From an uncultured Gemmatimonadales bacterium (GTDB lineage: Bacteria > Gemmatimonadota > Gemmatimonadetes > Longimicrobiales > Gaopeijiaceae): a DNA stretch of 64,000 bases. This document shows positions 42,590 to 64,000 of the stretch, piece after piece. The DNA lies in the NCBI GenBank assembly GCA_963809895.1, contig CAWELD010000003.1, forward strand, positions 2,880,001 through 2,944,000. The letters run 5' to 3'. The translations under genes and the position numbers were made by a program. The notes below the pieces were generated by a model. The model saw only the letters and a program-made list of their open reading frames with translations, ran no database searches and was not told the origin of the DNA. Every line of letters starts with the position of its first letter. The stretch's first letter is position 1.

Positions 42590-42768
42590 GAAATCCCTCT
42601 CGGAAGGCGGTGGGCACCGGGCCATGCTGCAGGTCCCGGCCGCCTCGGGCAAGACCACGCGTCTGCCGGCGGCGAGAGCGGCACAGCGGCGGCCCCGGGG
42701 AGTAGTCCAGAGAGCCCGGGCGCTCGCCTTTCGGGCGCACCCGCTGACCACGATTCGATCGACCTGCC

Positions 42769-49494: not shown

Positions 49495-49530
49495 GCGCAA
49501 GTCTTCGCACGACCGTGCAGATTCTTGCAC
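49495..49530. promoter_or_regulatory. Tandem enhancer-like (UAS) dyads for a sigma54 activator
   Basis: GCGCAAGTCTTCGCAC (49495-49510) and GTGCA-GATTCT-TGCAC (49515-49530), 20-bp period, about 80-110 bp upstream of the -24 box. Confidence 0.6.
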
Positions 49531-49607
49531 GGTCATCTGGTCGTCCTGATCGCCGCCAAGACGCCCAAGACGTTGGCACGCTTGAGGTAACGAGAGCACG
49601 CCATCTG

Positions 49608-49623
49608 TGGCGTGCCCCTTGCT
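49608..49623 (+). promoter_or_regulatory. Sigma54 (-24/-12) promoter
   Basis: TGGCGTGCCCCTTGCT: GG-N10-GC with TTGC, about 55 bp upstream of ATG 49678. Confidence 0.75.
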
Positions 49624-49677
49624 CCTCTCCAGGCCGTGACCCCCTTGAAACGGCCACCGACTCGGAGAGCCACCCGA

Positions 49678-50316
49678 ATGCTGAGCACCCTCGCACTCCT
49701 CGCCTCGCTGACCCTCCCCGCGGGGAGCGCGACCCCACCCGATACGCTGGCGCCGCCGGTTCTGTCGCCGGCGGCCGTGCTGCAGCCTCGGGCCGCCCCC
49801 CTGACCATGGCGGCTCGGCCGGTCTCGCTCGCCTCTCAGATCACTTCGCCCCTCGCCTCCCGGCCCGACGAAGAGCCGCAGCTCATCGAGTACAGCGACG
49901 CGTACTTCACGCGACTCACCATCCACAAGTGGGCCAGCTACCTCACGGTGCCGCTCTTCGTGAGCCAGTACATCGTGGGCCAGAAGCTCATGAACGGTGA
50001 GGGCACGGACCGGCTGCGCAGCATCCACGGCGCCCTCGCCGCGGGCGTGGGCGGGCTCTTCGTGGTGAACACCATTACCGGAGGGCTCAACGCCATCGAG
50101 GCGCGCAAGGATCCCGCGGAGAAGAACCGCCGCACTCTCCACTCGGCGCTCATGCTGTTGGCCGACGCGGGCTTCGTCGCCACCGGCATGCTCGCCAAGG
50201 AGAACGAGGGCCGCGGACTCGCGAACAACAGGACCCACCGGGACGTGGCGCTGGCCTCCATGGCCACGGCCCTCCTGGGCTACGTGATCATGCTCCCCCC
50301 CTTCAGGAAGGACTGA
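49678..50316 (+). CDS. Four-helix membrane protein with one His per helix (cytochrome b561-like)
   Basis: Signal-like N-terminus and Pro-rich linker, then TIHKWA, SIHGAL, TLHSAL, RTHRDV each leading a hydrophobic helix. Confidence 0.65.
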   Translation: MLSTLALLASLTLPAGSATPPDTLAPPVLSPAAVLQPRAAPLTMAARPVSLASQITSPLASRPDEEPQLIEYSDAYFTRLTIHKWASYLTVPLFVSQYIVGQKLMNGEGTDRLRSIHGALAAGVGGLFVVNTITGGLNAIEARKDPAEKNRRTLHSALMLLADAGFVATGMLAKENEGRGLANNRTHRDVALASMATALLGYVIMLPPFRKD

Positions 50317-50813
50317 TGCACGCCTTGCTGGACTGGATCGCGTCCGCCACGTCCTGGTGGTCCGATTTCTACGCCGACTCCGGTGCCATGGAGACGGTCG
50401 TGATGTTCCTCCACCTGGGCGGCATGGTCGCCGCAGGTGGTATCGCCTTCACCATGGACCGCGCCGTCATGCGCAGCGCCAACGGCTGGCCGCACCGGGA
50501 CAACCTGGCCCGGGAGATCCACGCGTCCCACGCCGCCGTCATCGGCGGGCTGGTCCTGGTCTTCGCCAGCGGCATCGCCCTCACGCTGTCTGATCCCCGG
50601 ATCTTCCTGACCTCCTGGATCTACTGGGCCAAGATGGTCTCGGTGCTCCTCCTGCTCGGCAACGGGTGGTACCTGAAGCACTGGGGCGAGGTGCTGCTGG
50701 ACGACCCCGAGAGCGAGACCGCCTACCGGGGTCTGCGCCGTGCCGCGCTGCGGAGCGGGGGCCTGTGGGCGCTGGCCCTTCTGGGCGGCGTCGCCATCAC
50801 CATGTACGCATAG
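50316..50813 (+). CDS. Four-TM membrane protein (DUF2214/DUF6644-like)
   Basis: TGATG overlap; FLHLGG, IHASHAAV, ASGIAL, YWAKMV...LLGNG, SGGLW. Confidence 0.7.
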   Translation: MHALLDWIASATSWWSDFYADSGAMETVVMFLHLGGMVAAGGIAFTMDRAVMRSANGWPHRDNLAREIHASHAAVIGGLVLVFASGIALTLSDPRIFLTSWIYWAKMVSVLLLLGNGWYLKHWGEVLLDDPESETAYRGLRRAALRSGGLWALALLGGVAITMYA

Positions 50814-50824
50814 ATCGAAGTCCC

Positions 50825-51361
50825 ATGAGCGAGATGAAGCTGACCACGTTGACGACACCCGACGAGCCCGAGTGCGAGGAATGCGAGACCTGCGTCGGCA
50901 GGCGCGAGTTCTTCCGCATCGGCTTCGGCACCGCGGCGCTGGCCGCCCTCGCCGCGCTGGTCCCCAAGGGGGCCGCGGCCGCCCCGGTGCGCTGGACCCG
51001 GGCCCGATTCACCGGCGGGGCGCTCCGCTACCCCGTGCCCTCGGACGATGGCGTGACCGTCGACCGGGACAACGAAGTCATCCTGGTCCGCTATCAGGGC
51101 CTTGTCGCGGCCTTCGCCCTGTCGTGCCCGCACCAACGCTCGTTGCTCCGCTGGCGCGAGGACGACGGCATCTTCCGCTGCACGAAGCACCACTCGGAGT
51201 ACAGCCCCACCGGGGTGTACGAGAAGGGACGCGCCACCCGGAACATGGACCGCCTGGGGATCTCCCTGGACGGCAGTGAGGTGGTCGTCGACCCCACCAC
51301 CGTCTACCACAGCGACGACGACCCGCAGGGATGGGCGTCGGCCGCCGTGAAGTTGAGCTGA
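50825..51361 (+). CDS. Tat-exported Rieske [2Fe-2S] protein with N-terminal CxxCxxC
   Basis: GRREFF twin-arginine motif, box I CPHQRS, box II CTKHHSEY. Confidence 0.88.
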   Translation: MSEMKLTTLTTPDEPECEECETCVGRREFFRIGFGTAALAALAALVPKGAAAAPVRWTRARFTGGALRYPVPSDDGVTVDRDNEVILVRYQGLVAAFALSCPHQRSLLRWREDDGIFRCTKHHSEYSPTGVYEKGRATRNMDRLGISLDGSEVVVDPTTVYHSDDDPQGWASAAVKLS

Positions 51362-51366
51362 GATCC

Positions 51367-51783
51367 ATGGAACGACGAGACTTCCTGACTCAAAGCACGC
51401 TCCTGAGCGTCGTCGCCGTGCTGGCAGGCGCCTGCAACGGAATCGGCGGCATCACCGGACCGGACCGCAATCTCGACGTCGTGGTGAACCTCGACGACTA
51501 CCCGGCCCTCGACCAGGCAGGCGGCGTAGCGCGCATCAACGGGACCTCCACCCCGGTGGCTCTGGTGAACATGGGCTCGGGGACGTTCGCCGCCTTCTCG
51601 CTGGTGTGCCCGCACCAGGGGAGCACCGTGCAGTGGACGGGCTCGGCTTTCGTGTGCCCGAACCACGGCGCGCGTTTCGCGTCCGACGGCCACTGGACCG
51701 GCGGCCAGCCCACCTCGAACCTGTACGAATACGCGGCCCAGTACGACATGGGCGCCAACACCGTGCACATCACCGGTGCGTGA
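51367..51783 (+). CDS. Tat-exported Rieske [2Fe-2S] lipoprotein
   Basis: ERRDFL motif, lipobox-like LAGAC, box I CPHQGS, box II CPNHGARF, GQPTSNL. Confidence 0.9.
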   Translation: MERRDFLTQSTLLSVVAVLAGACNGIGGITGPDRNLDVVVNLDDYPALDQAGGVARINGTSTPVALVNMGSGTFAAFSLVCPHQGSTVQWTGSAFVCPNHGARFASDGHWTGGQPTSNLYEYAAQYDMGANTVHITGA

Positions 51784-51791
51784 GCTCCAGG

Positions 51792-53120
51792 CTAGATCCC
51801 GAGCTTCTCGATCTTGTAGAAAAGCGTGCGCACGCTGATACCGAGCAGGCGCGCGGCCTGAGCCTTGTTGTCGCCGGTGCGCTCCAGCGCGGCGCGAATG
51901 GCGTCGCGCTCGGCCCGGGCAACCACCTCGCCCAGGGGCTCCACACCGCCCGCCGACTCTGGCGGCGACGACGCCTCAACTGCCGGGAGGCTCACGTCCT
52001 GGACGTCCCCGTCCTCCGACATCAGCACGGACCGCTCCAGAACGTTCTTCAGCTCACGCACGTTCCCGGGCCAGGCATGGCTCTTCAGGCGCTCCAGCGC
52101 CGCGGGCGAGAGGCGGGCTCGCACGCCCAGGCGCTCGGCGAACTCCGCCAACATCGTACGAGCCAGCGCTTCGACGTCGGTGGGCCGCTCGCGGAGCGGG
52201 GGGATGTGGATGGGGAAGACGTTGATGCGGTAGTAGAGGTCCTCGCGGAAGCGTCCTTCGCGCACCGCCTGGGCGAGATCCTCATGCGTCGCAGCGACGA
52301 CGCGCACGTCGACCTTCCGGGGCGTGTTCGATCCCAGACGCTCCACGACGCCCTCCTGGAGGACCCGCAGCAGCTTGGGCTGAAGGGTCGAGGGCATGTC
52401 ACCGATCTCGTCGAGAAAGAGCGTACCACCGTCGGCCACCTCGAACTTGCCCGGGCGATCCTTGACGGCGCCCGTATAGGCGCCTCGCTGGGCCCCGAAC
52501 AGCTCGGCCTCCAGGAGCTCGCCGGGTATCGCGGCACAGTTCACGGCCACGAACGGATGATCGCGCCGGGCGGACCGCTGGTGGAGCAGGCGAGCCACCA
52601 CTTCCTTGCCGACCCCGGTCTCTCCCGTGACCAGCACCGTGGTGGGAGCGTCGGCGACCTGTCCCACCAGCGAGAGGACCTCCCGCATGGCAGGGCTCTC
52701 GGCCACGACGCCCGCCGCGTCCGACGTGTCCGTCGCGGCAGCCGCGCGGCCTCCCGGTCGGGCTTCCAACGCACCGGCCACCAGCGACTCGAGCTCGTCC
52801 ACGCTGAAGGGCTTGAGCACGTAGTCGTAGGCGCCGGCCTTGATGGCCTCCACCGCGGTCTCGACGGTGCCGAACGCCGTGATGAGGATCACAGGCGTCC
52901 CCGGACGTCGGGTCCGGAGATCGGCGAGAAGCTCCATCCCGGAACGTCCCGGCAGCTGAAGGTCCGTGACCACCACATCCACCGACTGCTCGGACAGGAG
53001 CTCGGCGGCGTCCTCCGCGGTCGAAGCCGTGAGCACGTCGTAGCCCCGGTCCCCCAACGCCATCTCCACGATGCGTCGGATGTGCGGCTCGTCGTCGACG
53101 ACGAGGACCCTTTCACTCAT
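51792..53120 (-). CDS. Sigma54-dependent response regulator (NtrC/AtoC family)
   Basis: Receiver VLVVDDE...TDLQLPG; AAA+ GETGVGKE, GAYTGA, LFLDEIG, FREDLYYR, WPGNVREL; Fis HTH. Confidence 0.96.
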   Translation of the reverse strand: MSERVLVVDDEPHIRRIVEMALGDRGYDVLTASTAEDAAELLSEQSVDVVVTDLQLPGRSGMELLADLRTRRPGTPVILITAFGTVETAVEAIKAGAYDYVLKPFSVDELESLVAGALEARPGGRAAAATDTSDAAGVVAESPAMREVLSLVGQVADAPTTVLVTGETGVGKEVVARLLHQRSARRDHPFVAVNCAAIPGELLEAELFGAQRGAYTGAVKDRPGKFEVADGGTLFLDEIGDMPSTLQPKLLRVLQEGVVERLGSNTPRKVDVRVVAATHEDLAQAVREGRFREDLYYRINVFPIHIPPLRERPTDVEALARTMLAEFAERLGVRARLSPAALERLKSHAWPGNVRELKNVLERSVLMSEDGDVQDVSLPAVEASSPPESAGGVEPLGEVVARAERDAIRAALERTGDNKAQAARLLGISVRTLFYKIEKLGI

Positions 53121-54820
53121 CGCTGCTCCGGACCTGCAATGGGGAGGGTCACACGCATGCACGTGCCCTCGCCCGGTGTGCTCTCCACCTCGATCCGCCC
53201 CCCATGAGCCTCGACCAACTGCCGCACGATGGGAAGGCCCAGCCCGTTCCCGGCCCGATGCGTCGTGATCAATGGCTTCCAGATCTCCTCCAGCATGTCG
53301 GCGGGAATGCCCTCCCCGTCATCCTCCACCTCCATCACCGCCAGACTCCCATGGGTATTCGTACGCACCACCACGTGCCCCCCAGCGGCGCAGGCCCGGG
53401 TCGCGTTGGTGACGAGATTGACGACCACCTGTCGCAGAAGGTCCGGATCGGCCTCCAACGGAGCCGACTCGCCCTCGAGTCGGAGATCCACGCCCTTCTC
53501 CACGGCCTCGGCGTCCAGCGCCTCGATGGCGCCCCGGGCGACGTCGCGCAGGTCCGTCTGCTGGAGCACCGGCGCGGACTGTCGACCGAAGACCAGGAGG
53601 TCGTCCACCAGGCGGGCGAGCCGTTCCACTTCGGCCTCGAGCATCTCGCTCACCTCACGCTCTCGCGATCCGGCACCCGGTGCGCGAGCCAGAATCTCCG
53701 TGCCGGCGCGCAGCACGGCCAGCGGCGTCCGGATCTCGTGGGCCAGGCTCTTGGTGAGCATGCCCACCGCCGCCAGCGACTCGGCCCGGGCCAGCTCGGT
53801 GCGGGCCTCCTCGAGACGGGTGACCATGCTGGAGATGGCCTCGGCGAGAACCCGTACCTCCGACGGAGCCCACGACGAGGCCGCGGGGATGGGTTCGGGA
53901 TGTCGCGGGTCCAGATCCCGAGCAGCCCGGGTGAGACGGGCCAGCGAGAGCGTCGCGCTCCGGGTCACGAGCAGTGCGGCCGGCAGCGCCAGCACCAGGA
54001 AGAGCAACGCCAACGTAGCGAGTTGACGACCCGCCTGATGCAACGCGCGGGTCACCTCCGCCCGGGCGCGGCCCACCGACACCACCATCGGTCCCGCGAC
54101 GGTGCGTCCTGTGTGACTCGCCCAGATGTAGGCGTCGTCGGGTCCGTCCAATCCCTCGCCCCGGGCGAGCAGGGTCCCGTCGTCGAGGGTGAGCCGCGTG
54201 GTGGCCAGCTCCAGGGGGATCGCGGACGTGAGGAAGGGACGGAGCGGAGTCCACACCACGATGCGCCCCAGGACGCTCTCGTCCACGGCGGAATGCACGT
54301 CGGCGGAGGAGATCACCGATCCCCCGTCGCCGGGCACGAGACGAATCCCGGGTACCGCCGCCACGATCGCATCCTGCACGTCGGCGGGAAGCGGCGGCCC
54401 CTCTCCGCCCAGACGCGCCGGATCGGACGCCGACAGGATCGTGCCGTTGCGCGCGGCCACCGCTCGGGTGCCGTTCCCCAGCGCGTCGGCCAGGTCGGCC
54501 AGCGACTGCGACACCCGCTTGTCGACGTCGTCCACGGCCAGGTCCTGGGAGGTTTCCAGGGTGGCCCACAGGTCCACGAGACGGCTCCGCTCGGCCAGCG
54601 CGCCTTCGAGACGATCCGCCGCCACGGTGGCCTCGACGGACAGGGTCGCGTCGGTCTCGGCTACCAGGCGCTCCTCGCCGGCGCCATATTCGCGCAGGAC
54701 GACCGCCACCGTGGCCAGGACCATGAACGCAGCCAACAGGAGGGCGAGACGTCCGGCCAACGACCCGGGCAGCAGCCCGACCGCGCGTCCTGCACCCTGA
54801 GAGGATTCCGACCGTTGCAC
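53117..54820 (-). CDS. Membrane sensor histidine kinase with HAMP domain
   Basis: Two TMs around a periplasmic domain, H-box LAHEIRTPL, NLVTNA, DDGEGI, GNGLGL; ATGA overlap with the regulator. Start approximate. Confidence 0.92.
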   Translation of the reverse strand: MQRSESSQGAGRAVGLLPGSLAGRLALLLAAFMVLATVAVVLREYGAGEERLVAETDATLSVEATVAADRLEGALAERSRLVDLWATLETSQDLAVDDVDKRVSQSLADLADALGNGTRAVAARNGTILSASDPARLGGEGPPLPADVQDAIVAAVPGIRLVPGDGGSVISSADVHSAVDESVLGRIVVWTPLRPFLTSAIPLELATTRLTLDDGTLLARGEGLDGPDDAYIWASHTGRTVAGPMVVSVGRARAEVTRALHQAGRQLATLALLFLVLALPAALLVTRSATLSLARLTRAARDLDPRHPEPIPAASSWAPSEVRVLAEAISSMVTRLEEARTELARAESLAAVGMLTKSLAHEIRTPLAVLRAGTEILARAPGAGSREREVSEMLEAEVERLARLVDDLLVFGRQSAPVLQQTDLRDVARGAIEALDAEAVEKGVDLRLEGESAPLEADPDLLRQVVVNLVTNATRACAAGGHVVVRTNTHGSLAVMEVEDDGEGIPADMLEEIWKPLITTHRAGNGLGLPIVRQLVEAHGGRIEVESTPGEGTCMRVTLPIAGPEQR

Positions 54821-54853
54821 CGAAGCTTCTCGCTCTTCCCCGCCCTCGGGCGT

Positions 54854-55981
54854 TTGGTTCGACGGGCCCTGACCGTGGCGTTGGCCCTGGGTGCCCTGTC
54901 GGGTGCCGCGGCGCCCGCCCGGGCCCAGCTTCCGGCGCCGCCGGTGGTGGGGACCGACTTCTTCCAGTTCGGGGGCTACGCCGGGCTCACCGTCACCCGG
55001 CCCGAACATCCGGAAGGGGTCGAGAATGTCGATGTCAGCGAGCTCGTGGCCGCCCTCATGGCCTGGGGGCAGCTTTCCCCCAGGGCAAGCTATCTGGTCG
55101 AGCTGGACATGGCCAAGCGCACCACCGAGACCTGGACCGGACGTGAGTCCGATCGGCGGCTGGACCCCGTGCGCCTCTACCTGGAGTACTCGGCCAGCGA
55201 TCTGCTGCGGGTGCGGGTCGGACGCTTCCTCACCCCTGTCGGTCAGTGGAACGAGCGGCACGCCGAGCCTCTCACGTGGACGCCCACGCGCCCACTGACC
55301 ACCTATCGTCCCTTCGCGAAGAGCCTCACCGGACTGCTGCTCGCGGGCGAGGGCTCGGTGGCGGGGCACGACGCGGGCTATGCCCTGTTCTGGGCACCGT
55401 CCGCGTCCTGGGACCGGCGCTTCTACGACGAGGAGGAGAGTGGGTTCGCCCAGGCCCTTGGAGCTCGGGTGGCCGTCGAAGCCCATCGTGGGCTGACGCT
55501 GGGCCTGAGCGCGGCGCGCATCCGACGCTCGCAGCCCCGCGACCCGGACACCGAGCTCACCGGCGAGCGGGCCGCCGTCGTCGTCTTCCCCGCGCCGACC
55601 ATCCCCCGACTCGCAACGCAGGAGACGGACGAGTGGGAGGAGGAAGAGGAGCCCCGGGCCCTGTTCGGCGCCGACCTCCGCTGGATCCGACCGAACGTGG
55701 AGCTCACCGCGGAAGGCGCCTGGATCCCATCGGTCGACGGAGAGCCCACCGAGCGCGGGATCTTCGGCCAGGGCGCCGTACGCGTACGAGGTCCGGTATG
55801 GGCCGTCGGACGGGCCGAGACCTACACCCCCGTAGACGGCACCACCGTGCACGTGGGATACGCCGGACTCACCGTTCGGGCAGGTCCCCATTTCGTGATG
55901 AAGTTCGGCCGCCAGTTCTCGAAGCGACCCTCGACCCGGATCCCGGACGGATGGTTCCTGTCCTTCTCGTCGCTCTTCTGA
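54854..55981 (+). CDS. Outer-membrane beta-barrel (porin-like) protein
   Basis: Signal peptide ending ARA-Q, amphipathic strands, YLEY...RVRVGRFLTPVGQWNERH, terminal Phe (SSLF). Start approximate. Confidence 0.75.
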   Translation: MVRRALTVALALGALSGAAAPARAQLPAPPVVGTDFFQFGGYAGLTVTRPEHPEGVENVDVSELVAALMAWGQLSPRASYLVELDMAKRTTETWTGRESDRRLDPVRLYLEYSASDLLRVRVGRFLTPVGQWNERHAEPLTWTPTRPLTTYRPFAKSLTGLLLAGEGSVAGHDAGYALFWAPSASWDRRFYDEEESGFAQALGARVAVEAHRGLTLGLSAARIRRSQPRDPDTELTGERAAVVVFPAPTIPRLATQETDEWEEEEEPRALFGADLRWIRPNVELTAEGAWIPSVDGEPTERGIFGQGAVRVRGPVWAVGRAETYTPVDGTTVHVGYAGLTVRAGPHFVMKFGRQFSKRPSTRIPDGWFLSFSSLF

Positions 55982-56553
55982 GCGGGGCGGGGGCGCGCCC
56001 CACCCCCCGGGCCCAGGAGGCGCCGGAGCCGGTGTGCGTGGTGGCGCACCTGCCCGAGGGTGTGGAGGCGGATCACGTGACGGAGGAGCTCGTCCGGCGG
56101 CTCTTCCTCGTCCGCCAGCGCTTCTGGCCCGACGGCAGTGCGGCGCATCCGGTGAACCTACCGGCGGCCTCGCCGGTCCGGGACCGGTTCTCGCGCGCGA
56201 TCTTCGGCGAGACCGTGCAGGAGATGGTGCCCTACTGGAACGACCGCTACTTCCACGGGACCCGCCCTCCGCCCACGGTGGCCTCGGAGGCCGCCGTGCT
56301 CCTCTACCTGGATCGCACGTCCGGAGGGATCGGCTACGTGCAGGCGTCGGCCGCCGAGGCACTGCCGACGAGCGTCACGCGGCTCTTCTGTACGTCCCCC
56401 CGGGGGGCGAGCGCCTCCGGCGGGTCATTCCGGAACCGGAGTCTCGACGATGACCCGACCTCGCATCGTCGGGTGAAACGAACACAGGTACGCCCTGGAA
56501 CCGGGACTCCCCGCAATCCACCGCCAATGTCGGCCCGGATCCAGACGGGGTGA
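55951..56553 (+). CDS. Small exported PstS/PBP2-fold protein
   Basis: Signal peptide; VVAH...VRRLFL...FWPDG...VRDRFS...YWNDRYFHG-x-RPP...SEAAV...GGIGYV; overlaps the barrel gene end. Confidence 0.75.
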   Translation: MVPVLLVALLSGAGARPTPRAQEAPEPVCVVAHLPEGVEADHVTEELVRRLFLVRQRFWPDGSAAHPVNLPAASPVRDRFSRAIFGETVQEMVPYWNDRYFHGTRPPPTVASEAAVLLYLDRTSGGIGYVQASAAEALPTSVTRLFCTSPRGASASGGSFRNRSLDDDPTSHRRVKRTQVRPGTGTPRNPPPMSARIQTG

Positions 56554-56763
56554 GGTCCAGGCAGAATCGGCGGCCGTGACGGTGTGCGGGATCACGTCGT
56601 CATTGGTCCACTCCACGGTATCGCCCGGAAGCACCCGGATTTCCGCCGGCCTGAAGGCCATCCCCCGGATCTCCACGCTGCGCGTCACCGGCGTGCGCGG
56701 TGGCCCCGGCCCACCGCATGCGAGAACGTACGGGATCGCGAACAGGAAGCGAGCGCTGCGCAT
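56425..56763 (-). CDS. Cupredoxin (amicyanin/plastocyanin-like) lipoprotein
   Basis: Lipobox VLAC, FRPAEIRV-x-PGDTVEWTN-x-D-x-x-PHTVT, type-1 Cu loop YLCSFHPTMRG. Confidence 0.92.
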   Translation of the reverse strand: MRSARFLFAIPYVLACGGPGPPRTPVTRSVEIRGMAFRPAEIRVLPGDTVEWTNDDVIPHTVTAADSAWTSPRLDPGRHWRWIAGSPGSRAYLCSFHPTMRGRVIVETPVPE

Positions 56764-56769
56764 GCGAGC

Positions 56770-57297
56770 TCAGCCGTTGGGAAGCGCGGCGAGAACGCCC
56801 CGCGCCTGCTCCAGATGGGCCCGCAGCGCCGGCAGCACTCCCTCCAGGAGCTCTCGCAACTCGTCGTTGGAGGTGGCCGGTACGAGCGTGTCCGCCACGG
56901 TGGCGATCACCGCCTCGTGATAGCTGACCTCGTTCTCCATGTATGCCCGGTCGAATGCGGCACCTTCCAGCCGTGCCAACCTCTGACGGGTCGCTTGCGC
57001 TCCCTTGGCCAGGCCCCGGCTCGTGTCGTTGTCCACGGGCTCGACACCGAGGCGGCCGGCGAGGGCAGCGGCCTGATCGATGACGGCCTGATGGTCCCGA
57101 ACCATCGTTTCCGCGAACTGCCGCACGGCCTGGTTTTCGGAGCGTTCCAGAGCCTGTTCGGCCGCCGTGATGTCCAACCGGTTCGCGGTCACGGCGATGT
57201 GCGCGATCTCGGCATCGCTCAGTCGGACCGGCATGGGCGCCGCATCGGTGATGGGGAATATCGAGAGAAGCACGACGGTGGCGAAGAGCGTGGTCAT
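56770..57297 (-). CDS. DUF4142 ferritin-like exported protein
   Basis: AGGAGG RBS; LSDAEIAHI...AN, VRQFAETMVRDH, GAAFDRAYMENEVSYH, HLEQA. Confidence 0.9.
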   Translation of the reverse strand: MTTLFATVVLLSIFPITDAAPMPVRLSDAEIAHIAVTANRLDITAAEQALERSENQAVRQFAETMVRDHQAVIDQAAALAGRLGVEPVDNDTSRGLAKGAQATRQRLARLEGAAFDRAYMENEVSYHEAVIATVADTLVPATSNDELRELLEGVLPALRAHLEQARGVLAALPNG

Positions 57298-57344
57298 CCT
57301 CGGTCCTCCTGGGTTCGAGATGGGCGGTGTCGCCTGAGTCGAGA

Positions 57345-57400
57345 AGAAAAAGAATGAGGTTAACATAGTTTGTCAATGAGTTTCTTGTGTTACTGTGAAA
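57345..57400 (-). promoter_or_regulatory. AT-rich promoter/operator region for DUF4142-cupredoxin
   Basis: Marked AT-rich patch; perfect TTGACA on the minus strand (57376-57371) next to an imperfect dyad centred on GTTAAC; no clear -10. Confidence 0.5.
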
Positions 57401-57452
57401 TCCTCGGCCCTTGTCGGCGCTACGTGAGACCTCCCTGGGACTGCGCCCGGAC

Positions 57453-58091
57453 CTACGCGTCCTGCGCGTCCGCAAACGTGACCTCGAACGCGCACTGCGC
57501 TCGCCGTCCCCGCTCACAGACCTCGCGCACACGCCCTCCAGTGGTCTCACGAACCAGGGCCTCCACCAGGCCGCAGGCCCGCGCATCCTGGCGCGTCACG
57601 GCGGAGAGTGGACATGCGGAGCCACGAAGGGTCCACATTCCGTCCCGGTGGCGAACCTCCACGCTTCCGCCCAGCGCCCGCAGTGCGGCCGCCGCCTGGG
57701 TGACGCGTGCCTCGGGGCTTCCCGACCCTGGGGTGGCCGCCTCGACGCCCACGTCGTCCAGGAGCTCGCGGAGTCCCGACGACCCCAGCCTCGTCTCGAC
57801 GGCGTCCATGAGACGCTCCAGAACGAAGGCGTACGCTTTGGGAAAGAGCTCGTCGGCCTCCTGGGTGACGGAGTAGGTGGCCGCCGGCTTTCCTCCGGTA
57901 TCCCGGCGGACGCCGGTTTGGAGGACCAACCCGTCCCGCTCCAGCGCAGCCATGTGTCCACGGATGGCGTTGGGTGTCACTCCCACCTCCTCGGCCACCT
58001 CCTGAATCGTGCGATCGCCGCGTTGGAGGAGCTGCATCACCTGCAGACGAGTATCGCCCGCGAGTCGCTCGAGCCAGTCCGGTGCCACCAT
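57453..58091 (-). CDS. Winged-HTH regulator with four C-terminal Cys (COG2345/SufR-like)
   Basis: TRLQVMQLL...GVTPNAIRGHMAALERDGLV...GGKPAATY...FPKAY; CPL, AC, VC, QCAF. Confidence 0.85.
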   Translation of the reverse strand: MVAPDWLERLAGDTRLQVMQLLQRGDRTIQEVAEEVGVTPNAIRGHMAALERDGLVLQTGVRRDTGGKPAATYSVTQEADELFPKAYAFVLERLMDAVETRLGSSGLRELLDDVGVEAATPGSGSPEARVTQAAAALRALGGSVEVRHRDGMWTLRGSACPLSAVTRQDARACGLVEALVRETTGGRVREVCERGRRAQCAFEVTFADAQDA

Positions 58092-58314
58092 GAGTCCCAC
58101 TCCACCAGAGAAAACGGTAAACGAAGGATAAACTGGGCTTTCCTTCCAGTTCCCTCTCCCGTTCCCGGTACGGGCTTCTACGGACCACCGCCGGGGCACA
58201 TCCCGACACGGATCTCCAGCCGCGTCCCACAGCCTGCGCCCCCGGCGATGGCTTAGGCTTACGCTACCAGACGGCTGCGAATCGAACGAAGCGCCCCGAA
58301 CCCCCGAGGTCGAC

Positions 58315-59539
58315 ATGCGTCACGGACGTCCCCCTGGTCATCCCCACGGCCACTCCTCCTCCAGGACGGGTCCCCTCGGGATGACGCTCGACTTCGACCA
58401 GGCGCCCTTCCTGGTCATCTGGGAGACCACCCAGGCCTGTGACCTGGCGTGCAAGCACTGTCGGGCCGAGGCCCAGCCGCTGCCGCCACCCGACGAGCTG
58501 ACCACGGCCGAGGCAAAGAAGCTACTGGAGGACGTGCGGCGCTTCGGCCCCATCATCTTCGTCTTCTCCGGCGGTGACGCGCTGAAGCGGCCCGACATCG
58601 TGGAGCTGACCCGCTACGGCACCGAGCTGGGACTGCGCATGGCCATCACGCCGGCCACCACGCCGCTGTGCTCCGAGGAGAAGCTGCGCGAGCTCCACGA
58701 GGCCGGGATGGCCCGGCTGGCGGTGAGCCTGGACGGCTCCGACGTCGGCGGTCCACGACGAGTTCCGCAGGTGCAGGGTTCGTTCGACCACGGACTCCGG
58801 ATCCTGCGCACCGCCCGGGAGATCGGCATGTCCACCCAGGTGAACACGGTCGTCGCCCGCCACAACGTGAACGACTTCCGCGTGATGGCCGAGCTGCTCT
58901 CGGAGCTCGGGATCGTCTTCTGGGAGGTCTTCTTCCTCGATCCCCATGGGGCGCGCGCGCCCGGAGGACGTGGCCGGCGCAGAGGCTTTCGAGCGCGTGT
59001 TCAACGAGCTCTACGACTGCCAAGAGGTGCCGTTCGACATCAAGGCCACGGCCGCGCCCCAATACTCGCGCGTGGTGCTCCAGCGGAAGGTCGCGGAGCG
59101 GCGAGAAGGGATGCGGGACGGAGGCGTCGGACGTGCTCACCGACGGTGTCGGCCCACTCCCTGAGCGACGGCATCGGCCGGGCCCGGGGCGTGAACGACG
59201 GCGACGGCTTCATGTTCGTGAGCCACGTCGGGCGACATCTTCCCGTCGGGCTTCCTCCCCATGTCGGCGGGCAACGTCCGCACCCACGACCTGGTGGACA
59301 TCTACCGCAACGCTCCGCTCTTCCGGCAGCTCCGCGACCGGTCAGCTCTCAAGGGCAAGTGCGCGGTCTGCGAGTACCTGCGCGTGTGCGGGGGGAGCCG
59401 GGCGCGGGCCTACGCGGTCACCGGCGATCCCCTGGAGGCCGAGCCCTTCTGCGCCCACATCCCGAAGCGGTACCAGCGGATGGTGGAGGCCGGTGAGGCC
59501 GAGCCGGTGGATCCGTACTTCGCCAGCGAGGGCTCTTGA
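58315..59539 (+). CDS. Radical SAM/SPASM protein (TIGR04053-like, NirJ/AhbD-related); several frameshifts between 58.9 and 59.25 kb
   Basis: GAGGT RBS, WETTQACDLACKHC, SGGD, VSLDG; later frames give PMGRA, IKATAAPQYSRV, GVNDGDGFMFVSH, KGKCAVCEY...CGGSRARAYA. Confidence 0.85.
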
Positions 59540-59589
59540 TCGGGGGATAGCGCCTCGATCCATGGAGGGAGGGCGACGTGAGAACGGCG

Positions 59590-59946
59590 CCACCCGTGCC
59601 GTCGCAGGCGCTTCAGCAGGTAGCGCCGCAAGGCACCGCGTTGTTGCGCTCGGTGTCGCGGGCTGCGTATACGAGCGTCGCCGGCCCTTCCCTGACGGCG
59701 TCGAGAAGCGTCACGAGGCCGTCGGGATCGCCATCCAACTCGGCGTGGTATCGCCGGAGTAGTTCGTCCCAGCGCTCCGGGTCCCGGTCGTACCAGCGCT
59801 GCGGACGTCGTTCGGTGCGACGTAGCCGAGCTACGCCTCGCTCGCTCGCCTTCCCTGCTCACTCCCGCGGCCAGAGTCGGTCCACCAGGAAGCGCCGGCC
59901 AACGTCGTCGGGCGGCGCGTCGTGACCCGCCGGACCAGGTTCGCAT
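59590..59946 (-). CDS. DUF488 (YeaO-like) protein, multiply frameshifted and absent from the ORF track
   Basis: Manual translation across frames: GRRFLVDRLWPR, QRWYDRDPERWDELLRRYHAEL, TLVYAARDTERNNAV, LRRYL. GAGGT RBS before ATG 59946; end approximate. Confidence 0.75.
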
Positions 59947-59963
59947 GGAACCTCGCCCCGGGC

Positions 59964-61232
59964 TCAGGAACCCGCGGACCCCCGGGCCGAGCCCCCGCCA
60001 GGCGCTCCGCAGTCCGTCGCGCCTCCGCCAGCCGCCCGGGAATCCCGGGCCGCCCATCCAGTTCGCCGCGACGTGAAGCCGCTTGGGAGGCCCAGCCCTG
60101 CAGGGCGCCCCAGGACCCGTCCCAGGCGGGCATGACCTCGCGCTCGACGGCGAGGGGCCGCGCGTCGTACCCGGTGCAGGTCCGGAACTCATCGACCGCG
60201 AGGCGGGCCAGCTCGGTGTCGGGCAGTTCGACGACTTCCGGGCGGCGCCGCCCAGGTATGCCGTGTACACGTTCCGTCGGCCGAACATGGAGTGGTTGTA
60301 CGTGACGCCCCGGAGCGCGAGGTGCTCCGTGAAGGCGACCTGAAAGCCGAGTCCCTCGAGGTCCGTCTCGGCGTCGAGATGCACCACCGCCAGCGGGTTG
60401 TAGTGGAGGGACCGAAGCGCGCCGGCGGCGTCCGGCGCGACGGAATCCAGCAGGGTCGCCACGGCCGGCGCCGGAGCGGTGAACACCACCTGCTCGGCGT
60501 CCAGAGGCCGCCATCGACCTCGAGGCACCCGCCCGTGCGCTCCGCTCGCGGGCCTCGCACGGGCGCACCGAGACGCACGCCTCACCCAGAGATCGCGCGA
60601 GGGCGTTCGGCAGGGTCTGCATGCCCTCCCGGAACGACAGGGCCGGCGGGGGCACGATGCGCCCGCCGCGCCGCAACAGAGGAAGCACGAGACTCCGGCG
60701 AATACCGAACTCGCGTCAGCACGTGTCCCAGTGACAGCCCGACCACCATGTCCGCGGGATCGGAGCCGTAGAGGCCTCCGTAGAGGGGCGCTACGAGCGT
60801 CTCGTAGATCTCCCGTCCGACCTTCCGCGTGAAGTAGCGGGCTACGCGTTCCCCGGGATCGGCACCGGAGGTGAGGGGCTCGAGGGCGAGGCGCAGCTTC
60901 GCCATGGGGCTCACGATGTCCGAGCGCAGGAAGTCGCCCGCCGAGAACGGAACGCGCCGTAAGCGCTTCTTCCGGTACACGAACAGGCCCAGCCCGGAGG
61001 GTGCGATGAGCGCCTCTCCCTCCAGCTCGAGATCCTCCACCAGATCGCGGAGTCCGGACGTCAGGCGTGTACGTTGCGGTCCCCACTCCAGCACGCGATC
61101 CTCGACGCGTGCGCTCCGGATGACACCGCCGGGCCGGTCGGAAGCCTCCAGGACCACGAAGTCCACCTGCCGGCGACTCAGCTCCCATCCCAGAACGAGC
61201 CCGGTGATCCCTCCCCCCACGACGGCGATCAT
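59964..61232 (-). CDS. hemY: HemY-type (copro/protoporphyrinogen) oxidase, frameshifted
   Basis: IAVVGGGITGL FAD motif, LEASDRPGGVIRS, EWGPQ, GLYGSDP, SFREGMQTL, LHYNPLAVVHL, GLGFQV, PGIPGRL spread over three frames; end approximate. Confidence 0.85.
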
Positions 61233-62326
61233 GCTTCTGCGCGGTGCTCGCCCGGCTCGCGGGGGTGACGTACGGGCGGGGGCAGGTCTCGCGCCCCGTT
61301 GGTGCACCACGTGTCGTCCAGTGGGCAACAGCGGCACGCGGAAAGTACCCCGGGACGCGTCGGGTCCTCGGCCATCGCCTGGCTCACCAGGTCCGCCAGG
61401 AAGCGCGGAAAGCGTGGATCGTCGTGCGGCACGGGGACGCGGTGCATCTCCTTGCCGAGGCTCTCGACGAAGGCTCCGAGTTCGTGATCGAGCTCCGCCA
61501 GCGTTTCGGATTGCTCGTGCATGAACGAGATCGGCACCACCACGAGCCGCCGTTCCGGGCGACGGCGAACGGCGTCGTCGTTGTCAGGCTGTGTCCATCG
61601 GATGCGGCGGTTGGTGTGATTCTGGAAGCCGACCTCGTATCGGTCGGCGCGCAGTGCGTGGGCGATGTCACGGCAGTGCTCGTAGACGTAGCGATCGTAC
61701 CTGTTCCCGTCGGACAGGTAGCGCACCGGTGTGCCGTGGACGGAGAAGTACAGGAGCGTGTCCGGATCGCTCAGGTCGAGGCCGCCGCTCGCCAGGAAGG
61801 ACCTCAGGTGCTCGACGAGCATGCTCCGATAGGCGGGGTGGTGATGCCAGCCTGCGATCCCGACGAAGCGCGGCGTCCACCCGACCTCATCGAGGGCCGC
61901 GCGCACGTCACGGAGCGCGGCGGCGGTCGTGGAATGCCCGCACATGGGATAGACCGGAAGCGCCACCAGCGTGTCGACGCCGTCGGCTCTGGCCTCCGCC
62001 ACCTTCTCCTGGATGGAGGGCTCGGTGAACTGGAAGGCGGAGTAGACGCGCGCGTCTCGACCCCGTGACCGCAGCTCCGTCTCCAGTGCGTGGGCCTGGG
62101 CATCGGCCTGGCCGTTGAGGGGTGAGCCTCCGATGGCGGCGTAGTCGCTTACCAGACCGGGTGCCCTGTCCGCCGCGAGCTGCCGGGCGCGCGAGACCGC
62201 CGCCGCGTCGGCGTGGCCTTCCAGGCTCGCGTTCTGGAGGAAGATCCTCTCCAGGTAGGGGCGCGCCTTCTCGAGGGTCGCCTCGTCGGGCTCACCGAAA
62301 TTCAGGATCAGGACTCCGATGGACAC
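61229..62326 (-). CDS. hemH: Ferrochelatase (HemH/CpfC) with Cys-rich C-terminus
   Basis: GVLILNFGEP, YAAIGGSPL, LPVYP, FSVHGTP, WTQP, PISFMHEQSETLAELD. Confidence 0.93.
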   Translation of the reverse strand: MSIGVLILNFGEPDEATLEKARPYLERIFLQNASLEGHADAAAVSRARQLAADRAPGLVSDYAAIGGSPLNGQADAQAHALETELRSRGRDARVYSAFQFTEPSIQEKVAEARADGVDTLVALPVYPMCGHSTTAAALRDVRAALDEVGWTPRFVGIAGWHHHPAYRSMLVEHLRSFLASGGLDLSDPDTLLYFSVHGTPVRYLSDGNRYDRYVYEHCRDIAHALRADRYEVGFQNHTNRRIRWTQPDNDDAVRRRPERRLVVVPISFMHEQSETLAELDHELGAFVESLGKEMHRVPVPHDDPRFPRFLADLVSQAMAEDPTRPGVLSACRCCPLDDTWCTNGARDLPPPVRHPREPGEHRAEA

Positions 62327-62374
62327 GTCACGGGCTCCGGTGGGGTGGGTGCGCAGGGCCTCGTGGAGGTGGGG

Positions 62375-63418
62375 TCAACCCGCTTTGCGAAGCGACTGTT
62401 CGTGTACGCGGTCGACCAGGAAGGCCACCTGGTCGGGATCCGTCGTGCGGTGGATTCCGTGTCCCAGGTTGAACACGTGGGCGGCGGCGCCGGAGCCTTC
62501 CTTCAGCACGTCGTCCACGGCGGCGGCCAGCTCGCTGCGGGGAGCGAACAGCGCCGCCGGGTCGAGATTGCCCTGGACCACCACATCTTCGCCCAGATCC
62601 TGCACGGCCCTGGACAGGGGGAGCGTCCAGTCGATGCCCACCACGTCGGCGTCGAGCTCCCGCACATCGGAGAGCAGGGTCGCGCCGGCATTCGCGAAGT
62701 AGATGACCGGACGGTCCACCTGCGCACGGATGGCCGCGACGGTGTCCTTCAGAACCGGGAGAACGTGGCGGCGGTAGCTCTGCGGGCCGAGGAGTCCCGC
62801 CCAGGAGTCGAAGAGCATGAGGGCGTCGGCGCCCGCCCTCGCCTGGGCGACGAGATAGGCCGCCATGGACGTTCCGAGGAGGCGCAGCAGGCGGTTGGCG
62901 GTCTCCGGCTCGGCGTGCAGGAAGGCACGAGCCGTGGCGAAGTCCTTGGATCCGCTCCCTTCGACGAGATAACAGAAGAGCGTGAAGGGCGCCCCGGCGA
63001 AGCCGATGAGGGCGGCGTCGCGACGGAGCTCGGCCCGCACCAGGCGCAGCGCCTCCATGACGAAGCCCGCGCTCTCTTCGGGCACGAGCGCCCGGAGAGC
63101 TTCCACGTCGCTTGCGGAGCGGATGGGCCGGTCCAGGACCGGCCCCGGCGCGAAGTCCAGGCCCACTCCCATTCCCTCCAGGGGCGTCATGATGTCGCTG
63201 AAGAGGATGGCGGCGTCCAACGGGAAGCGCTCCACGGGTTGGAGCGTGATGCGTGCCGCGACGTCGGGGGTCTTGGTGGCGGTGAGGAAGTCGACGTGCT
63301 CGCGCAGCTTGCGGTACTCCGGCAGGTATCGCCCCGCCTGCCGCATGATCCAGACGGGTGGGCGCGGTCCACGGATCCCCCGACAGGCCTGCTCGAAGAG
63401 CGTCTTGGGCTCAGGCAT
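62375..63418 (-). CDS. hemE: Uroporphyrinogen decarboxylase
   Basis: [55 protein letters not shown]. Confidence 0.97.
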
Positions 63419-64000
63419 CGGGGAAATCTTCTTCCGTCATGACGTCCTCGGCGGCGTCCAGGGTACGCTCGACGTCCTCGGGGGTGTGCGCGAACGACCA
63501 GAACCACGCCTCGAAGGGGCTGGGCGGCAGGTGGATGCCCCGGTTCAGAAGCCCATGGAAGAGGGCCGTGAACCGCTCCCGGCTCGCCGCCGAGGCCGAG
63601 GGCCAGTCGATCACCGGTGTCTCGGAGAAGAAGAGCGACCCCATGCCACCCACACGGTTCCACCGCAGCGGGATTCCGAGCCGACGGCCCAGGTCCGAGA
63701 AGCCCTCGTCGAAGGCCCTGCCGAGGGCTTCCAGGTGCTCGTACACGGCCCGACTCCTCGTCGATGTATCGGAGCGTCGCCAGGCCTGCCGCCACGGCCA
63801 GCGGGTTGCCCGAGAGCGTGCCCGCCTGGTAGACGGGACCGTCGGGGGCGATCTGGCGCATGAGGTCGGCCCTGCCCCCGTACGCACCCACCGGAAGGCC
63901 TCCGCCGATGACCTTGCCGAGGGTCGTGAGGTCCGGCGTGATTCCGTAGCGTCCCTGTGCTCCCTGGGGGCCGACGCGGAAGCCCGTCATGACTTCGTCG
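63411..64000 (-). CDS. hemL: Glutamate-1-semialdehyde 2,1-aminomutase, 3' part; frameshift near 63750
   Basis: [42 protein letters not shown], then in another frame [13 protein letters not shown]. Confidence 0.93.

Follow-up and report, generated by a model that had tools for sequence, protein, structure and literature searches.

The window, a 64,000-nucleotide stretch of the genome of an uncultured Gemmatimonadales bacterium (GCA_963809895.1, contig CAWELD010000003.1, positions 2,880,001 to 2,944,000), contains a contiguous run of eight open reading frames (ORFs), which we call A to H and refer to together as the cassette. A to D lie on the plus strand. E and F lie on the minus strand and converge with A to D, and G and H, again on the plus strand, diverge from F. 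The ORFs of A and B share the sequence TGATG. The control sites and genes are as follows, in window coordinates.

49495 to 49510: upstream activator site 1, an imperfect GTGCA-N6-TGCAC palindrome, in tandem with site 2 in homologues
49515 to 49530: upstream activator site 2, a GTGCA-N6-TGCAC palindrome, putative binding site of activator E
49608 to 49622, plus strand: sigma54 -24/-12 promoter, TGGC-N7-TTGC, located from aligned upstream regions
49678 to 50316, plus strand: gene A, with a Sec-type leader, a Pro/Ala linker, and a four-helix domain carrying His83, His117, His155, and His187; predicted bis-His diheme b protein, cytochrome b561-like
50316 to 50813, plus strand: gene B, an inner-membrane protein with four transmembrane (TM) helices, of the HemJ/DUF2214/DUF6644/CopD type, predicted to bind heme b
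50825 to 51361, plus strand: gene C, a twin-arginine translocation (Tat) Rieske protein with Ser and Tyr kept, no lipobox, no disulfide pair, and a CxxC ahead of the RR motif
51367 to 51783, plus strand: gene D, a Tat lipoprotein Rieske with Ala and Phe replacing Ser and Tyr, PetC3-like
51792 to 53120, minus strand: gene E, a REC-AAA+-Fis sigma54 activator of the NtrC/AtoC/ZraR type
53117 to 54820, minus strand: gene F, a membrane histidine kinase with a Cache-like periplasmic sensor of about 220 aa; the GTG start is taken from homologues
54815 to 55981, plus strand: gene G, a predicted outer-membrane beta-barrel, probably OprO/OprP-like, with a terminal Phe
55951 to 56553, plus strand: gene H, a secreted single-lobe ("half") PstS-fold protein whose start overlaps the end of G

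The original prediction had described eight contiguous genes, and all eight ORFs are present as described. The left edge of its region (49495) is the start of the conserved activator palindrome. C and D (Rieske), E (REC, sigma54 AAA+, and Fis helix-turn-helix [HTH]), and F (HisKA and HATPase) match Pfam or NCBIfam families over the cut-off; no such family reaches its cut-off for A, B, G, or H. As had been claimed, the cassette ORFs include no cytochrome b or c1, oxygenase alpha subunit, molybdenum (Mo) enzyme, or permease. The Rieske/cytochrome b pair that this genome does have lies on a different contig (C10, about 1137400 to 1140250; L148), with a multiheme cytochrome c ahead of it. The cassette is real and conserved, and it is undescribed in the literature searched: full-text searching, which covered listings and abstract openings, found no description. 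We suggest that these genes, from uncultured soil and sediment bacteria, most likely build a small envelope electron-transfer chain; in some lineages a dedicated sensor, which has an outer-membrane pore of its own, would turn it on.

The original prediction had the output operon driven by sigma54, and the upstream region supports this. The two palindromes and the -24/-12 box upstream of A line up across 14 aligned upstream regions, with GGC-N7-TTGC aligned in 14 of 14. Locus counts out of 80 refer to the best 80 of 371 A relatives from a GTDB scan. Among these, the box and palindrome occurred together in 20 of the 23 loci with an adjacent E versus 1 of 44 without E, and in 1 of 13 truncated loci; one of these 13 (L034) had its upstream window cut wrongly, which leaves the 20 of 23 and 1 of 44 unaffected. 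The single exception without an adjacent E (L016) has A and D only, and a full A-B-C/E-F-G-H cassette lies on another contig there. The source genome contains rpoN and 289 strict boxes, two of which pass the filter; of these two, A's site alone has the two palindromes. The components of a sigma54 two-component operon are therefore recognizable by sequence: a REC-AAA+-HTH activator, a kinase, a -24/-12 box, and upstream palindromes. We consider the regulatory link of E to the A promoter well supported by this distribution, with the palindromes as candidate binding sites of E.

Three further observations concern this region. TGGCACG at about 49574 was rejected as the promoter because it has no -12 GC and is not conserved; the real box is that at 49608 to 49622. 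A site resembling that of integration host factor, between the palindromes and the box, is a lead, with at most 8 of 9 matches in some homologues and 7 of 9 in the window (16 of 25 loci scanned). One RNA library gave short, near-exact, low-depth contigs over A, B, the C-D junction, E, F, and G; DNA carry-over is possible, and they are not evidence of expression.

Judged by gene order, what is conserved is A-B-C, to which D may be added; the eight-gene form is a regulated version restricted to a subset of the Gemmatimonadota. B and C were both downstream of A in 59 of 80 loci, and in 57 of the 73 with at least 1.7 kb downstream; some Rieske gene followed A in 64 of those 73. The gene orders were ABCD (24 loci), ABC (24), A alone (11), ABCA (5), DABC (4), AC (4), AD (3), and five single variants. 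E was adjacent in 23 of 80 loci, all of them titled Gemmatimonadota. It was accompanied by G and H in 18 of 18 loci with 7.5 kb of contig, and G-H was never seen without E. The neighborhood search thus upheld the linkage of input to output genes in other genomes. The eight genes did not hold up as one unit, because in most loci A-B-C lacks the input half. Parts of the core, with E to H absent, were seen in the 20 loci titled Acidobacteria, Vicinamibacteria, or Aminicenantes.

The core occurs in Gemmatimonadota and in some Acidobacteriota. In an even sample of the Gemmatimonadota, A was present in 92 of 301 genomes, and B lay within 3.5 kb of it in 83 of these 92. Of 301 genomes sampled from the phylum of an Acidobacteriota-titled locus, 8 were found to have A. 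Among 61 near genomes, six including the source genome have A, and four of the five others carry A, B, C, and E to H in the same arrangement. At 50% identity, the A family falls into 773 clusters. A close H orthologue (E<1e-50) was present in 2 of 301 phylum genomes, the source genome counted. A search begun from the kinase sensor found 10 metagenome loci, with the barrel in 10 of 10 and A to D in both loci that were long enough.

Other genomes have the orders A-D-B-C, B-C-A, A-D alone, and B-C alone, and these variants suggest two sub-pairs, A with D and B with C. In 4 of 80 loci, the place of D is filled, directly upstream of A, by a gene for a c-type cytochrome lipoprotein. Lone B genes can have cytochromes c or cupredoxin-like genes as neighbors. 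In 5 of 80 loci, closely similar to one another, a Tat-leader Mo-cofactor operon of the aldehyde-oxidoreductase type lies upstream of a lone A. Lone A paralogues in L014 (6499 to 9889), L020, L022, L023, and L025 stand directly after a 2Fe-2S gene paired with a Tat-leader Mo-cofactor gene (aldehyde/isoquinoline oxidoreductase type), and such a paralogue may be the membrane electron acceptor of the adjoining oxidoreductase. Seven loci (L045, L050, L065, L068, L071, L078, and L209) have A-B-C-A' or B-C-A' followed by a convergent tetratricopeptide repeat protein, a lipoprotein, and a different sigma54 activator; the palindrome is absent from these variants. An apparent fused form of A, a 480-aa protein, was set aside because it looks like read-through with an anti-sigma-like gene. 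Plasmid searches with A and B gave nothing meaningful.

The two Tat Rieske proteins of the original prediction are confirmed. C and D both score over the PF00355 cut-off, with CxH...CxxH ligands and RR-x-F-L leaders. However, they are not the twins that it had called them, because C is of the Ser/Tyr type without a lipobox and D is an Ala/Phe-type lipoprotein. C-type proteins keep Ser in 61 of 62 and Tyr in 62 of 62, and they have the disulfide pair in 0 of 62 and a lipobox in 0 of 39. D-type proteins have Ser in 5 of 34, Phe in 25 of 34, the disulfide pair in 5 of 34, and a lipobox in 18 of 25. The Ser and Tyr raise the Rieske redox potential (PMC12954380). Since both are kept in C and lost in D, we infer that the two differ in potential, with C probably the higher-potential and D the lower-potential Rieske. 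A CxxC precedes the RR motif in 37 of 39 C-type leaders (50825 to 50900 in the window) and is possibly a metal- or redox-sensitive export control.

The solved structures most closely related to D are 8hn2 and 5cxm (PetC3). PetC3 is a stand-alone, lipid-anchored Rieske of cyanobacteria without the Ser and Tyr, with a midpoint potential of +135 mV and no known function (PMC10172866). D likewise has a lipid anchor and has lost both residues. It differs from PetC3 in that the disulfide pair is mostly missing and in that its operon also encodes heme-type membrane proteins and another Rieske, of the Ser/Tyr type. The Rieske/cytochrome b complexes and AioAB also have Tat-exported Rieske subunits, some without the disulfide. 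However, the cassette has no cytochrome b, c1, or AioA, its C-type proteins uniformly lack the disulfide pair, and the Mo large subunit of arsenite oxidase and the alpha subunit of Rieske oxygenases are absent.

Gene A had been predicted to be a four-helix protein with four His residues, and conservation of these residues had been set beforehand as a test. His83, His117, His155, and His187, one per helix, are all kept in 264 of 265 A homologues, and Arg79, Pro92, Asn131, Asn138, Asp163, and Met205 are nearly as conserved. The AlphaFold2 model of A has four long antiparallel helices (74 to 105, 111 to 142, 146 to 175, and 185 to 204), each with its His near the helix start, and a predicted local distance difference test (pLDDT) score of 88 to 97 over most of the domain. 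In this modeled up-down bundle, His83 and His155 would be on one face and His117 and His187 on the opposite face, as in b561 proteins. In b561 proteins, there are two hemes, each ligated by two His, which lie toward opposite sides of the membrane (PMC9113575).

Weak Pfam matches of A homologues are mostly of the di-heme cytochrome type (DUF4079 in 40 of 54, prokaryotic b561 in 17 of 54); a DUF4079 search at E<=1e-5 gave no match in 201 phylum genomes. The modeled fold matches plant b561 (4o6y) with a Z-score of 10.8 and a root mean square deviation (rmsd) of 3.6 over 135 aligned residues, ranking below designed and unrelated bundles. It matches the designed diheme protein 4D2 with a Z-score of 12.5 and an rmsd of 2.0 over 100 residues. 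These matches are compatible with a b561-like protein and not specific for one. Foldseek gave no match for A or B at E<=0.001, and the fold searches were dominated by generic or designed four-helix bundles. A sequence match between A and 4D2 (E 5e-5 in one alignment, 0.015 in another) was rejected as homology, because it is a short motif match at chance level. Compared with cytochrome b561 (eukaryotic CYB561/Dcytb, Escherichia coli CybB, and Burkholderia LcoA), A has the same four-helix core, with four His residues placed for two bis-His hemes. However, it is below every curated cut-off, has a cleavable leader and a long Pro/Ala linker, has weakly hydrophobic helices with a reversed charge bias, and is partnered with Tat Rieskes and a HemJ-like protein.

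The claim that gene B encodes a His-containing protein with four TM helices also stood. The model has four TM helices and a pLDDT of 95, and His33, Asp48, His72, Asp93, Lys106, Asn116, Ser147, and Trp151 are invariant in 54 of 54 homologues. The same 54 homologues gave weak Pfam matches to DUF2214 (43), DUF6644 (36), UPF0093/HemJ (20), and CopD (10). In a profile comparison with eight HemJ-family proteins from the phylum, seven of them over the cut-off, B matched HemJ with a probability of 76% (E 2.3e-5, 74 columns), and the W-x-K106 of B fell on the invariant Lys of HemJ. HemJ is a b-type hemoprotein (PMC13564367). By analogy, B is predicted to bind heme b via His33 and Lys106.

B shares with HemJ (PgdH2), DUF6644, DUF2214, and CopD proteins its four TM helices, the TM1 His, and the W-x-K in TM3; the TM1 His and TM3 Lys of HemJ are reported to be its heme ligands. 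By its sequence, however, B is not HemJ. It scores 17.3 bits against TIGR00701 (HemJ; cut-off, 138), its consensus lacks the HemJ motifs W-x-AGLFY (WMAGLFY) and NExPT, and it has the extra invariant residues His72, Asp48, and Asp93. No solved relative of B, G, or the kinase sensor was found by sequence. Cofolding of A (66 to 212) with C (22 to 178), B, and three hemes gave B a score of 0.00, which is evidence neither way. More distant B relatives are DUF6644-type tandem pairs adjoining c-type cytochrome lipoproteins. One recurring arrangement in Gemmatimonadota (L222 to L227) combines a pair of DUF6644-type genes with genes for a c-type cytochrome lipoprotein and for a small secreted protein bearing an HHAFGAEFD motif; it would be another uncharacterized envelope redox module related to gene B.

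On the input side, E is a standard REC-AAA+-Fis protein like those of ZraSR, AtoSC, and NtrBC, but here a dedicated barrel and a half-PstS protein accompany it. Neither E nor F reaches the equivalog cut-off of any named system listed. In the sensor of F, the acidic motif QDLAVDDVDKR is conserved, and no His, Cys, or Met is. The inferred starts of F and G overlap on one hexamer, 54815 to 54820 (TTG on the plus strand, GTG on the minus strand), with the same spacing in L012, L028, and L035. In 15 of 17 loci, the conserved cores of F and G are separated by a distance divisible by 3, and there is essentially no intergenic space for promoters. G has a weak match to the OprO/OprP porin family Porin_O_P (PF07396) in 9 of 16 homologues and none for the window protein; its Atlas cosine to a Porin_O_P cluster is 0.98. 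The start of H lies within the last 31 nt of G (55951 to 55981), as is common in homologues. The H proteins of the cassette form a subfamily with its own FHG motif (His102), and His149 is conserved in G. The C-terminal tail of H is not conserved and overlaps a convergent cupredoxin gene by 129 nt (56425 to 56553).

The original prediction had H as a periplasmic binding protein (PBP) that presents a ligand. H aligns with PstS residues 77 to 185 only, a single lobe, which rules out a classical two-lobed binding protein; the lack of a permease in the cassette also sets it apart from the Pst transporter. TorT-TorS, LuxP-LuxQ, and PstS-CtpL are binding-protein-dependent sensors, and H-F resembles them in that a periplasmic PBP-fold protein is encoded with a membrane sensor. 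Unlike those partners, H has one lobe, and its translation is coupled to that of its own barrel. Nor are the barrel and PBP-fold pair a feature of this module, because the pair occurs with other signaling genes elsewhere. Distant H paralogues are present in 29 of 301 genomes. In 19 paralogue regions (46 of 112 listed neighbors scanned), 13 have a gene for a methyl-accepting chemotaxis protein (MCP), a GGDEF/EAL protein, a kinase, a sigma54 regulator, a Ser/Thr kinase, or a LysR-type protein beside or near the pair; two have no signaling gene, and four have candidates outside the scan. Four of 10 proteobacterial plasmid matches were examined, and in two of the four an EAL or MCP gene is next to the pair. 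By these neighborhoods, the barrel plus half-PstS is a generic signaling accessory of MCPs, GGDEF/EAL proteins, and kinases.

We give an about even chance to the reading that the cassette is an inducible heme-b/Rieske electron-transfer module of the cell envelope. The A-B-Rieske operon is conserved, the eight-gene form stands behind a sigma54 promoter whose activator sites travel with E, and kinase F travels with G and H. In the proposed mechanism, a signal passing or acting on barrel G would reach H and then the periplasmic sensor of F. F would phosphorylate E, and E with sigma54 would transcribe A-B-C-D. A would hold two b hemes (His83/His155 and His117/His187) and move electrons across the membrane like cytochrome b561, and B would hold a b heme via His33/Lys106 like HemJ. 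The two Tat-exported Rieskes, differing in potential, would act as carriers in the periplasm. Among downhill paths, the most coherent would run from a membrane donor to A, then to D (low), to C (high), and to B or a periplasmic acceptor.

Such a module would be built from distant relatives of known families, and by its gene content it is not a bc complex, an arsenite oxidase, a Pst system, or a HemJ. MsrPQ is induced by a two-component system and has a heme-b membrane protein feeding a periplasmic Tat-exported redox protein. The cassette would likewise be a two-component-induced operon with a heme-b-type membrane protein and Tat-exported periplasmic redox proteins, but it has no molybdoenzyme. 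By analogy, it may work like b561- or MsrQ-type modules.

Several points weigh against the inducible electron-transfer module. The heme of A and B and the Fe-S cofactors of C and D are predictions. The window's A scores 14 to 16 bits against family cut-offs of 30 to 31 (PF03188, PF01292, and PF13301), its fold Z-scores are within the range called unspecific for helical bundles, and its top matches are designed non-heme bundles. The window's B also has no Pfam family over the cut-off, the B-HemJ alignment spans TM2-TM3 only, and the equivalence of His33 is by motif position. D is missing from about half of the core loci and is therefore dispensable, and A stands alone in 11 of 80. The loci are from related genomes, and their counts indicate linkage, not independent events. 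Finally, the topology signals of A conflict with a normal inner-membrane b561.

These signals bear on a first alternative, in which A is fully Sec-exported and forms a heme-bound, alpha-helical diheme conduit in the outer membrane. D would dock on its periplasmic face, C would cross the periplasm, and B would be the inner-membrane end, giving an electron route across the whole envelope that is free of porins and c-type cytochromes. A short uncharged N-terminal h-region is present in 188 of 197 full-length A homologues (median run, 13 aa), and only seven have at least two Lys or Arg after it; this argues for a cleaved signal peptide and not a reverse anchor. Lys and Arg are richer on the side that the leader places outside the cytoplasm (8.2 versus 5.2, in 240 of 265 homologues), the opposite of the positive-inside rule. 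On an approximate hydrophobicity scale, the insertion energies of the four helices sum to about 10.7; the corresponding sums are 1.3 for B, 2.3 for HemJ, and -0.2 to 2.2 for five b-type/DUF420 proteins of the inner membrane from the same genome. The variable faces of the helices are apolar (0 to 6% polar), so A is not a soluble monomer. In several genomes A is directly beside lipoprotein D without B, and B and C are adjacent where A is elsewhere. A may thus lie outside the inner membrane, and the quinol-to-heme b step of the original prediction is uncertain, because the sequence of A is unlike an ordinary inner-membrane protein. However, marginal helices are common among those that bind heme, and partners can stabilize them; the leader plus four-helix core matches the register of TM2-5 of eukaryotic b561 (model 72 to 212 to chain 40 to 184). 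D is missing from many loci, and we know of no alpha-helical outer-membrane b cytochrome. We regard the outer-membrane conduit as doubtful.

An unlikely alternative is metal acquisition, in which A and the Rieskes would feed B, as a CopD- or ferric/cupric-reductase-like protein, to reduce and import Cu or Fe, and the barrel and half-PstS would sense a metal complex. It could account for the CopD matches among B homologues (10 of 54), for the conserved His102 of H and His149 of G, and for lone B beside cupredoxin-like genes and an extracytoplasmic function sigma pair (L216, L218, and L220; by eye, from N-terminal sequence). The b561 proteins include Fe3+ reductases (PMC9113575). However, no His, Cys, or Met is conserved in the kinase sensor, the cupredoxin and DUF4142 genes seen in the window come up again in only 1 of 80 loci, and no metal transporter or TonB receptor was recognized among the recurrent neighbors, which were seen mostly as sequence heads with a partial Pfam scan. 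Just as improbable is an envelope antioxidant like CybB or LcoA-BcnA, in which A, at a basic face on the periplasmic side, would scavenge lipid peroxyl radicals or superoxide and hand electrons on via the Rieskes. CybB and LcoA are b561 proteins with such a role (PMC9113575), and a conserved Arg/Lys cluster surrounds His83 and His155 of A. Rieske partners are not described for CybB or LcoA in the portions of the literature available, and the YceI lipocalin was found in 0 of 117 A or B loci, a weak test because the three YceI queries from the genome barely find each other. Charge complementarity of the basic face of A with D or with cytochrome c lipoproteins was not supported: D has a median charge of -1, and the cytochromes are positive. 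Heme or porphyrin handling (binding, buffering, or HemJ-like oxidation) rather than relay is very unlikely: B resembles HemJ, no HemJ over the cut-off is present in the source genome, and hem genes are a few kilobases away in the window, but hemE, hemH, hemY, and radical S-adenosylmethionine (SAM) genes are in 0 of 80 loci, genomes with a true HemJ (e.g., G121, G146, G156, and G188) also carry B, B lacks the HemJ motifs, and heme buffering would give no reason for exported Rieske partners.

Gemmatimonadota and Acidobacteriota are abundant in soil and sediment, and their envelope redox biology is little studied. With an electron-transfer module as the preferred reading, two unannotated membrane-protein families (A and B) gain a cofactor hypothesis, and stand-alone periplasmic Rieskes, of which the best studied, PetC3, has no known function, gain a genomic context. 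The porin/half-PstS signaling module gains a defined promoter, activator, and output, so that a reporter screen for its signal is possible. If A were an outer-membrane protein, it would represent a new extracellular electron transfer route.

Downstream of the cassette, the window (56425 to 63999) contains genes for an amicyanin-like cupredoxin, a DUF4142 protein, an ArsR/SufR-like HTH regulator, and a TIGR04053 radical SAM protein, and further genes read by eye as hemY, hemH, hemE, and hemL. The original prediction had taken the adjacent cupredoxin, ferritin-like, and heme genes as a fit to metal or redox handling. They are incidental: an association with Cu, ferritin-like, or heme genes is ruled out by recurrence in 1 of 80 loci for the cupredoxin and DUF4142 and in 0 of 80 for hemE, hemH, hemY, and the radical SAM gene. 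The radical SAM, hemY, and hemL genes and a large peptidase-like gene (40871 to 42751) appear frameshifted, which suggests assembly indels in the window.

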